NCBI RefSeq assembly: GCF_002854065.1
Contig: NZ_CP024147.1
Length of the DNA: 64,000 nucleotides
Reading direction: 5' to 3' (one strand)
Origin: Escherichia coli
GTDB taxonomy: Bacteria > Pseudomonadota > Gammaproteobacteria > Enterobacterales > Enterobacteriaceae
Below, one piece after another: positions 44,512 to 50,064 of the stretch. A program made the translations under genes and the position numbers. The stretch's first letter is position 1. Each line of letters starts with the position of its first letter. Below the pieces are notes generated by a model. The model was not told the DNA's origin. It did no database searches and saw only the letters and a program-made list of their open reading frames with translations.

Positions 44512-46484
44512 TTACTTACTCAAATCCACCTGATAAATCGCAAACCCGATATCATCGGTCGCGACTTTATTCATCGGATATTGCCCTTTCTCTTTAATAA
44601 ACGCTGCGGCTTTATCTGACGGGGAAGTTTCGAAACGGATATCCAGTTTCTTATCGCCGGCTATCGGTGCTAAACGCCAGTTGTTATCTGCCGCCGGGTG
44701 AATTTCCCCCGCACGTTTCGACTCATCAGCAATCCACGCTGCCAGCACCGAGCGGTTCTCATCCGGTGAAGCAAAAGCGATATGGCTGTCGCCCGTACCG
44801 GCAAATTTGCCGCCGTAAGCGCGATAGTTATTGGTGGCAACGAGGAACATGGCGTTCGGATCAATCGGCTTGCCGTTAAAGGTCAGGTTCTTAATCCTTT
44901 CCGCATTGGCATTAACCATCTGGCACTCGCCGTCATAACGGGCAGGCTGGGTAACATCAATCTGATAATTCACACCATCAATCACATCAAAGTTATAGGT
45001 GCGGAAACCATCCCAGTTGATGAGTGACTGTGGTTTCGTGTTGTCAGGATCAATCTGGTTAAACTGTCCGGCGGAGCACTCCAGCCACTCTTTCACCTCT
45101 TTACCGCTGGCTTTCACCACAATCAGCGTATTGGGGTAGAGATAAAGATCGGCGGCATTACGGAAGGTCAACTGGCCTTTTTCCACCTCCACATAGCTTG
45201 CCGGATCATTTTTGCGACCACCAACTTTAAACGGTGCAGCAGCTGAAAGCACCGGCAGTTTTGCCAGATCCGGATCGTCCTGAATGTAATGCTCGACATA
45301 CGCTTTTTGCGCGTTGTTCACCACCTGCACGGTCGGATCGTCCTGCACCAGCGCCAGATAGCTATACATATTGTCGGCGGATTTACCGATTGGCTTGCTG
45401 ACGAACTGGCGTGTGGCATCGTGATCGGCTTTGAGTGTTTCTACCAGCTTGCTGTCTTCCGCCGCGAGGGATTTTTTATTGGCGATGTCGTAAATCGGCC
45501 GTGCTTCCGCTTTCGCCTGCGTCACCTGCCATTTACCGCTGTTATTACTGAGTTGTAAGTCGACCACCCCAAGATGATCGCCCCACATGCCCGGCATTAC
45601 CGCCGGAACACCATTCAGCGTGCCTTTCGCGATATCAGCCCCTTCGATACGATATCAGCCCCTTCGATATCAGCAAAATCTTTACCTGGGAAAACGGCGT
45701 GAGCATGGCCAAACATAATGGCGTTAACGCCAGGAATTTCACTGAGGTAATAAACTGAGTTTTCCGCCATCACTTTATACGGATCGGCAGATAGCCCGGA
45801 ATGCGCCAGAACGACAACGACATCGGCACCTTTCTCGCGCATTTCAGGCACGTATTTGCGCACGGTTTCGGTAATATCATTCACCGTCACTTTTCCGGAT
45901 AAATTAGCTTTATCCCAGCCCATGATTTGCGGCGGCACGACGCCAATATAGCCAATCTTCAGCGTCTGTTTTTTTCCGTCTTTATCGACCACTTCGGTAT
46001 CTTTAATTAAATACGGTGTAAACATTGGCTGTTTGGTTCTGGCGTCAATGACGTTGGCATTTACATAAGGGAATTTCGCTCCCGCCAACGCATTTTTCAG
46101 GTAATCCAGACCGTAGTTAAATTCATGATTGCCGAGTGTACCGACCGTATAATCCAGCGTATTCAGCGCCTTATAAACCGGATGAACATCACCTGCTTTT
46201 AATCCTTTCGCCGATATGTAATCGGCCAGCGGACTCCCCTGAATCAAATCGCCGTTATCGACCAGTACGCTGTTTTTCACTTCATTGCGGGCATCGTTAA
46301 TCAGGCTTGCCGTACGTACCAGTCCGAATTTTTCCGTGGCGGTGTCTTTGTAATAATCGAAATCCATCATGTTGCTATGCAGATCAGTGGTTTCCATGAT
46401 ACGTAGATCGACCGTCGCTGCATTCACACTGGCGGCAATCAGCGTGGCCAGGAGCGTTGCGCTAAACTTAATCATCAGGGACAT
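44512..46484 (-). pseudogene. cpdB: cpdB (periplasmic 2',3'-cyclic-nucleotide 2'-phosphodiesterase / 3'-nucleotidase) split by a 20-bp tandem duplication
   Basis: N-terminal ORF 45615..46484 (signal peptide [36 protein letters not shown], ends ...[19 protein letters not shown]) and C-terminal ORF 44512..45597 ([15 protein letters not shown]...) are adjacent and co-directional; removing one 20-bp copy rejoins them in frame. Confidence 0.85.
45630..45669. repeat. Perfect 20-bp tandem duplication CGATATCAGCCCCTTCGATA x2 inside cpdB
   Basis: Read directly: 45630-45649 and 45650-45669 identical. Confidence 0.9.
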
Positions 46485-46664
46485 CCTTTTATCATCGGGA
46501 ATACGAAAGAAAAGGGAGAATAAACGCCTTACTTATAGAACAGTGAAGAATGCCACAATTTTACGCTTTGAAAATGATGACACTATCACAGTTGGCGCAT
46601 TCATTAACGATAGGGTATAAGTAAAACAATAAGTTAACACCGCTCACAGAGACGAGGTGGAGAA

Positions 46665-47405
46665 ATGTTAGATCAAGTATGCCAGCTTGCACGGAATGCA
46701 GGCGATGCCATTATGCAGGTCTACGACGGGACGAAACCGATGGACGTCGTCAGCAAAGCGGACAATTCTCCGGTAACGGCAGCGGATATTGCCGCTCACA
46801 CCGTTATCATGGACGGTTTACGTACGCTGACACCGGAGATTCCGGTCCTTTCTGAAGAAGATCCTCCCGGTTGGGAAGTCCGTCAGCACTGGCAGCGTTA
46901 CTGGCTGGTGGACCCGCTGGATGGCACTAAAGAGTTTATTAAACGTAATGGCGAATTCACCGTTAACATTGCGCTCATTGACCATGGCAAACCGATTTTA
47001 GGTGTGGTGTATGCGCCGGTAATGAACGTAATGTACAGCGCGGCAGAAGGCAAGGCCTGGAAAGAAGAGTGCGGTGTGCGCAAGCAGATTCAGGTCCGCG
47101 ATGCGCGCCCGCCGCTGGTGGTTATCAGCCGTTCCCATGCAGATGCGGAGCTGAAAGAGTATCTGCAACAGCTTGGCGAACATCAGACCACGTCCATCGG
47201 CTCTTCGCTGAAATTCTGCCTGGTGGCGGAAGGGCAGGCGCAGCTGTACCCGCGCTTCGGACCAACGAATATTTGGGATACCGCCGCTGGTCATGCTGTG
47301 GCTGCAGCTGCCGGAGCGCACGTTCATGACTGGCAGGGTAAACCGCTGGATTACACTCCGCGCGAGTCGTTCCTGAATCCGGGATTCAGAGTGTCTATTT
47401 ATTAA
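46665..47405 (+). CDS. cysQ: 3'(2'),5'-bisphosphate nucleotidase CysQ
   Basis: 246-aa [25 protein letters not shown]; inositol-monophosphatase motifs (WLVDPLDGT). Confidence 0.95.
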
Positions 47406-47952
47406 TTAATTTATGCAGCAGGTCCATCACTTGCTGCACCTCTTCCTGTGTGAGCGCCCCGTCTTTGGCCCATTGCACGCGACCATCCTTATCCAGCACC
47501 ACTACAGCGGAACTTTCTTCATCCAGCTGCCAGGCACCGCGCGCGACGCCATTGCTATCGACAATAAACTGCGACCAGGGATAAAGCTTTTTATTACTCT
47601 CCAGACTGCTGCGCACAAACATCCCTGAACCCGGAATCGCGTCGTCGGTGTTAACAATGGTGGTGGTCTGGTAGCGATCGTGCGGTAACTTCGCTGATTT
47701 AATCGCTTCAATCAGCGTCGCGTTTTTCTCTTTTGCAGAGGTGCGACCAGCAATATGTTGCAGTACTCGCACTTTTCCCACTAACTGTGCGCTGTTCCAG
47801 GTTTTGTAGCTAAACTGATCTTTATCAAGCACCAACTCGCCTCGATCGGTAATGCCAATCGGCGGCACTCGCTGACCGGTTTCGAACTGATGTGCGGAAG
47901 CCATCATCGGCAACAGCAGGCAGGTGAGTGCCAGAATCTTGCTTAGGGTCAT
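47395..47952 (-). CDS. ytfJ: Periplasmic protein YtfJ (DUF1107)
   Basis: 185-aa ORF with signal peptide [20 protein letters not shown]; convergent 11-nt overlap with cysQ. Confidence 0.9.
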
Positions 47953-48483: not shown

Positions 48484-48544
48484 CCAAAGTGCTATGCAGT
48501 AATAAGACGGCTCCTGATTCAGGAGCCGTTGATGTTTCTGGGGG

Positions 48545-49888: not shown

Positions 49889-50064
49889 ATCTTATCCGAC
49901 CTTTCAGGCCAGATCCTCGGAAGGGGAAGTTGATTAATTTGTGTGAAATACACATTGAAAGCCGATTCGAAGAAAGTGAACCGGCATTTTCAGTGGCTAG
50001 TATAGCGTAAGGTACTGTAAAGTCGCCAGAGGGTTAAAATTCAGACTGCTGATAAATGCAATAC

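Follow-up and report, generated by a model that had tools for sequence, protein, structure and literature searches.

Overlapping 3′ ends of the convergent genes cysQ and ytfJ in Escherichia coli, and the ytfI presence/absence polymorphism at their junction

Tail-to-tail overlapping gene pairs are a well-described class in bacterial comparative genomics, and the cysQ and ytfJ genes of Escherichia coli resemble the members of this class in that they share their last codons and their stop codons on opposite strands, over a short distance; nothing sets them apart within it, and they are one more conserved example. A literature search on cysQ together with ytfJ returned no paper on their overlap. 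That insertions are tolerated where two core genes converge is a general idea, and the cysQ/ytfJ junction is like the integration hotspots between core genes in that it holds different cargo in different lineages, although it differs from these in that its inserts carry neither an integrase nor recognisable mobile-element machinery.

In the closest described case both the locus and the polymorphism are the same. Higashi et al. (2016, PLoS Genet; PMC4720273, S10 Fig) give ytfI as an example of a strain-specific segment inserted in the K-12 chromosome, where it nucleates H-NS binding that spreads over cpdB, cysQ, ytfJ, and ytfK; strains SE11 and SE15, which are without ytfI, show no H-NS binding at this locus (PMC4720273). 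The DNA described here is of the ytfI-less type, like SE11 and SE15. As presented in that figure (PMC4720273) the locus illustrates H-NS spreading, whereas the overlap of the two genes, the polarity of the change as judged from outgroups, and the frequencies of the two states in the population are added here. The ytfI polymorphism itself is thus already known, being both in the literature (PMC4720273) and visible in RefSeq annotation.

We have examined the junction in a stretch of 64,000 nucleotides of E. coli DNA (assembly GCF_002854065.1, contig NZ_CP024147.1), referred to as the window, in which the following features are relevant:

46665–47405, plus strand: cysQ, 3′(2′),5′-bisphosphate nucleotidase, 246 aa (open reading frame list, Pfam, and the RefSeq annotation of identical CUWW06 DNA)
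47395–47952, minus strand: ytfJ, YtfJ family protein (PF09695/TIGR01626), 185 aa (open reading frame list, Pfam and NCBIfam profiles)
47395–47405, no strand assigned: tail-to-tail overlap of 11 nt, CTATTTATTAA (sequence and open reading frame list)
47405–47410, no strand assigned: empty site matching the K-12 ytfI insertion (blastn of the window against K-12)

The original prediction was that cysQ and ytfJ converge with an 11-nt overlap at 47395–47405, and the sequence, the open reading frame list, and the NCBI PGAP annotation all agree with it. The cysQ stop codon is the TAA at 47403–47405 of the plus strand and that of ytfJ is the TAG at 47397–47395 of the minus strand, such that each stop codon lies within the open reading frame of the other gene. 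The same 11-nt overlap is annotated by PGAP (RefSeq) in CUWW06, the DNA of which is 100% identical; over 1.5 kb around the junction the window is 100% identical to CUWW06 and 97.5–100% identical to practically every complete E. coli genome. CysQ has a match to the Pfam Inositol_P profile (1.2e-51) and is full length, with 99.2% amino acid identity to the K-12 protein, while YtfJ, which has a signal-peptide-like segment at its N-terminus, is matched by PF09695 over residues 24–181 and by TIGR01626 over residues 1–183 of its 185 residues. Because the profiles reach residues 181 and 183 of YtfJ, and because CysQ is full length, both open reading frames are genuine up to their 3′ ends. With two genuine reading frames, nucleotides in common, and conservation of the overlap, cysQ and ytfJ are a convergent overlapping gene pair.

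Comparison with K-12 reveals where the two genomes part. The gene order in MG1655, as seen in both its annotation and the alignment, is cpdB, cysQ, ytfI, ytfJ, ytfK, paeA, with ytfI encoding a product of 312 aa, and this agrees with the statement in the original prediction that K-12 has ytfI between cysQ and ytfJ. Homology to K-12 breaks after position 47405 and resumes at 47410, with 4 nt in the window where K-12 has 1,225 (blastn), and the further statement that the window has no ytfI between the two genes is therefore also correct. A direct overlap of the same kind in K-12 would have spoken against the claim; on alignment the cysQ and ytfJ stop codons of K-12 are separated by a gap of 1,212 nt that holds ytfI, and the claim stands. 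The window carries the empty allele of a ytfI presence/absence polymorphism. The two alleles differ in the YtfJ C-terminus, which is ...DLLHKLINK* in the window and ...DLLQKLLK* in K-12. We note separately that the end of ytfJ also varies among insert-free alleles: at 47404–47412 the sequence is ATTAATTAATTT in the insert-free allele of E. coli and ATTGAGCAACTT in that of other Escherichia without the insert, with four GC-to-AT changes clustered in 7 nt that give YtfJ ...LINK* in place of ...LLNK*.

Both states are common in E. coli. The insert-free state was counted with an 80-nt probe across the junction. Of 5,426 complete genomes of E. coli, 3,794 match the probe from end to end and have the direct cysQ–ytfJ junction, CFT073 among them; S88 has the same direct junction, as seen with a separate 1.5-kb probe. 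Given the number of genomes that match end to end, the overlap is not a sequencing accident. The 1,225-nt segment of K-12 is present in 1,623 of the 5,426 genomes, and nearly full length in 1,604, its carriers including K-12 derivatives, O157:H7, O55:H7, and O145. Summed, the two states cover almost every E. coli genome, with an insert-free majority of about 70% and a ytfI-bearing share of about 30%. Identity of the segment to that of K-12 ranges from 80% to 100% within E. coli, and a divergent Escherichia lineage (locus L006) has a copy of ytfI with 69% protein identity. This diversity of the ytfI island indicates that presence and absence of the segment have long coexisted in E. coli, as an old polymorphism that is still segregating.

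Which of the two states came first can be judged from related species. One genome per GTDB species was scanned with YtfJ, yielding 80 loci in each of which both stop codons were located, and cysQ and ytfJ overlap by 11, 7, or 4 nt in 74 of these species-level loci (Enterobacteriaceae). The 11-nt overlap is found at 39 of the 80 loci, in other Escherichia (E. whittamii among them), Citrobacter, Salmonella arizonae, Klebsiella, Raoultella, Kosakonia, and Pseudocitrobacter; the 7-nt overlap is found at 29, in Enterobacter, Lelliottia, Leclercia, Pluralibacter, and Silvania; and the 4-nt overlap is found at six, in Kluyvera, Yokenella, and Trabulsiella. The three lengths are phase-constrained across species, differing by one or two codons plus register, and there is DNA between cysQ and ytfJ at only six of the 80 loci. 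With an overlap in 74 of the 80, the interlocked arrangement is the ancestral one within this part of the Enterobacteriaceae and is retained in the window. Thus, although the facts that the original prediction gave on K-12 and on the window stood, its implied polarity, in which the window is missing a gene, did not, as the window has the ancestral and majority state. The ancestral form of the locus is most probably a pair of convergent core genes with interlocked 3′ ends and with neither intergenic DNA nor an intrinsic terminator between them, and the derived form arose by insertion, exactly at the junction, of an AT-rich foreign segment of about 1.2 kb with an orphan YtfI and a strong hairpin at each end, which also gave ytfJ its slightly altered C-terminus.

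The interlocked arrangement raises the matter of how the two transcripts end. Two converging genes may be served by a bidirectional intrinsic terminator, and the nearby ytfK/paeA convergent pair provides an example, with an 11-bp stem hairpin at 48506–48530 that a consensus scan finds to be terminator-like on both strands. The cysQ and ytfJ genes converge likewise, but at their junction there is no hairpin plus U-tract in either direction, and K-12 gains hairpins through its insert alone. In the window the consensus scan found no hairpin plus U-tract after the cysQ or the ytfJ stop codon, the fold of the 60-nt junction is no more stable than that of its shuffled versions (z = +0.31), and an Rfam search found no known RNA at the junction. 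The sole hit of the scan near the junction lies within cysQ:

47373–47389, plus strand: 7-bp hairpin CTGAATC-CGG-GATTCAG in the last cysQ codons (L-N-P-G-F-R; terminator consensus scan)

At −7 to −8 kcal/mol this hairpin is weak; together with the junction fold it bears out the expectation that the overlap leaves no room for separate terminators.

Since there is no significant terminator at the junction in the window, transcripts would have to run into the opposite gene. Antisense transcription in E. coli is known to be suppressed by Rho. Without the insert, each RNA polymerase would be expected to carry on into sequence antisense to the opposing gene, where the read-through RNA, untranslated past the stop codon, could be stopped by Rho, by polymerases meeting head-on, or by both. 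That colliding RNA polymerases can end transcription where genes converge has been described (bioRxiv 10.1101/2022.10.23.513370). The composition of the read-through RNAs was assessed in 78-nt windows, and one stretch stands out:

47406–47600, plus strand: C-rich, G-poor stretch on the cysQ read-through, antisense to the 3′ part of ytfJ (78-nt composition windows)

Over these approximately 200 nt, C ranges from 0.29 to 0.38 and G from 0.18 to 0.22, with a C/G ratio of 1.4–2.0, whereas the ytfJ read-through has a C/G ratio of about 1.1 for approximately 270 nt and no marked bias of C over G. The stretch is a candidate Rho loading region by its base composition, which is compatible with Rho after cysQ and less so after ytfJ. 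Taking the locus as a whole, we regard it as highly probable that the best explanation is that of an ancestral overlap in the window and a derived insertion of ytfI in K-12, with termination in the insert-free state presumed to be by Rho or by collision.

Conservation of an overlap without a terminator in 74 of 80 species might be taken to mean that the arrangement is itself under selection, with cysQ and ytfJ controlling one another's expression in the way of an excludon, by antisense RNA or by transcriptional interference, and the bidirectional hairpin of ytfK/paeA would fit with this in that the absence of a terminator is not general to the region. However, conservation is expected in the absence of any regulation, as with interlocked stop codons most insertions and deletions harm both proteins, and the conservation of the overlap thus needs no regulatory explanation. 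Moreover, the overlap varies in length (11, 7, or 4 nt), and insertions that part the two genes are tolerated in six lineages. We consider such functional coupling to be unlikely, and view with similar doubt the corresponding proposal for K-12, in which antisense 3′ ends would couple the expression of cysQ and ytfJ and the ytfI insertion, with its hairpins and its nucleation of H-NS, would uncouple or silence the locus. If the coupling did operate, K-12 would be unrepresentative of cysQ and ytfJ expression in most E. coli and in other enterics.

The polarity could also be read in the opposite direction, with ytfI present in an ancestor of the strain's lineage, or of all E. coli, and later removed, so that the overlap in the window would be a restored state. 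The diversity of the segment (80–100% nucleotide identity in E. coli, 69% amino acid identity in L006) does imply long residence at the locus, and the E. coli empty allele differs from that of other Escherichia by four clustered GC-to-AT changes (TTAATTAAT versus TTGAGCAAC) that are readable as a scar. Nonetheless we judge a secondary loss to be quite improbable, as the empty allele matches E. whittamii, Citrobacter, Salmonella arizonae, and Klebsiella in both the 11-nt architecture and the reading frames, and a deletion would need to re-create these with single-base precision. Joining the left and right junctions of K-12 by a simple deletion does not yield the sequence of the window. Homologous recombination with an empty allele is a possible route, yet it requires that the ancestral allele persisted. 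Ancestral overlap with a later insertion of ytfI is thus the reading that we prefer, with the caveat that some insert-free lineages could descend from insert-bearing ancestors and have regained the empty allele by recombination. A deletion scar formed from the K-12 junctions was considered as a specific candidate and was ruled out; the differences between TTAATTAAT and GAGCAAC need substitutions.

The insert of K-12 has the composition of foreign DNA: its GC content is 0.35 overall, as compared to about 0.52 (0.51–0.55 for the flanking genes), and 0.29–0.40 in 200-nt windows, as compared to 0.51–0.61 in the flanks. YtfI has no sequence match in Pfam, NCBIfam, or the PDB, and a phage search found no phage homologue. 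Its 'plasmid' matches are to four records of 0.66–4.9 Mb, and these look chromosomal, so there appear to be no genuine plasmid copies. The only PADLOC match of YtfI, to Cas6b (E = 8e-4 over 41 residues), is marginal and was treated as a chance match. A repeat search revealed no flanking repeat of at least 14 nt at the insert, and CCATTATTTGA at the right junction, examined as a possible trace of a target-site duplication, agrees with the overlap CTATTTATTGA in 8 of 11 positions, a resemblance that is not significant in such AT-rich sequence. A hairpin lies directly after the K-12 cysQ stop codon (−21.4 kcal/mol, z = −5.9), and a second lies after ytfI (−14.9 kcal/mol, z = −3.0) and is followed by AAAAUUAUUUUUG.

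The weak hairpin at 47373–47389 was compared with random synonymous recodings, weighted by local codon usage, of the 13-residue peptide at the 3′ end of cysQ, and 22% of these fold at least as stably; the codons for Asn-Pro-Gly-Phe (AAY CCN GGN TTY) are self-complementary through the genetic code, and the hairpin is a by-product of the coding sequence. That it should, together with the T-rich stretch after it, be an intrinsic terminator of cysQ placed inside the coding sequence is very improbable and was rejected, even though the consensus scan flags it in both the window and K-12 and a hairpin is possible at the equivalent codons of other genera (CCCGG-CTT-CCGGG), because it has no excess stability in the recoding control and the junction fold has a z of +0.31, because release 7–9 nt past the stem would be expected to precede the cysQ stop codon and to yield non-stop mRNAs, and because K-12 has the much stronger hairpin just downstream of cysQ.

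The junction is a recurrent insertion site, with unrelated cargo in each lineage; five unrelated inserts are present at six of the 80 loci. That of Escherichia albertii NBRC 107761 (L007, 4556–6059) is, like that of K-12, AT-rich (GC 0.33), but it encodes a 385-aa pentapeptide-repeat protein (PF00805, 7.6e-12) that is unrelated to YtfI and lies on the strand opposite to that of ytfI. Citrobacter youngae ATCC 29220 (L035) has an insert of 2.1 kb with two genes, one for a radical SAM/SPASM enzyme and the other for a membrane protein of 298 aa that has a C-terminal repeat rich in Cys, Gly, and Ser; this insert is flanked by a 42-bp direct repeat, 95% identical, of the ytfJ 3′ end (L035, 4507–4548 and 6638–6679), and it is the only one of the junction inserts with clear flanking direct repeats. 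The repeat looks like an att-like duplication, although there is no integrase. Kluyvera genomosp. 1 and K. cryocrescens (L061 and L064, 4556–5460) have a 0.9-kb insert of normal GC content (0.55), with an open reading frame for a peptidase S11 or beta-lactamase-like protein, and Kluyvera intermedia (L070, 4556–4626) has only a 71-nt spacer, which contains a hairpin. No integrase and no mobile-element gene was found among the open reading frames of any of the junction inserts. The junction is thus a clean, if small, example of a site between converging core genes that has received insertions repeatedly.

The overlap of cysQ and ytfJ is real and ordinary, and it matters little beyond housekeeping. 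K-12 is nevertheless not the reference state at this junction, as cysQ and ytfJ interlock with no intergenic DNA in approximately 70% of the complete genomes of E. coli and in nearly all of the related genera examined, and differences from the K-12 maps of transcription units, terminators, and H-NS binding across cpdB, cysQ, ytfJ, and ytfK are to be expected in other strains.

Several minor observations concern the neighbouring DNA and the genomes compared. The cpdB gene (44541–46484, minus strand) is a pseudogene in the window, split into open reading frames at 45615–46484 and 44512–45597; the frameshift is caused by a 20-bp tandem duplication at 45631–45670 (GATATCAGCCCCTTCGATAC / GATATCAGCCCCTTCGATAT) that is absent from K-12. 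CUWW06 has the same duplication and, in addition, an IS1 in cpdB, while the duplication is absent from the 25 top-ranked E. coli matches listed, in which a 101-nt probe spans 81 nt. Two matches score above the Rfam gathering threshold. One is the ES239 sRNA (154.5 bits), at 46476–46598 on the plus strand, which lies in the spacer between cpdB and cysQ, immediately upstream of the latter; the other is STnc450 (58 bits, truncated at the edge of the searched region), at 49950–50000 on the minus strand, upstream of paeA. Finally, CACSKA010000007.1 (L033), which is labelled Chryseobacterium sp. 18061, has a cysQ/ytfJ locus of the Enterobacteriaceae type with a 7-nt overlap, and its YtfJ and CysQ are 81% and 90% identical, respectively, to those of E. 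coli; the assembly probably carries a wrong label or is contaminated.
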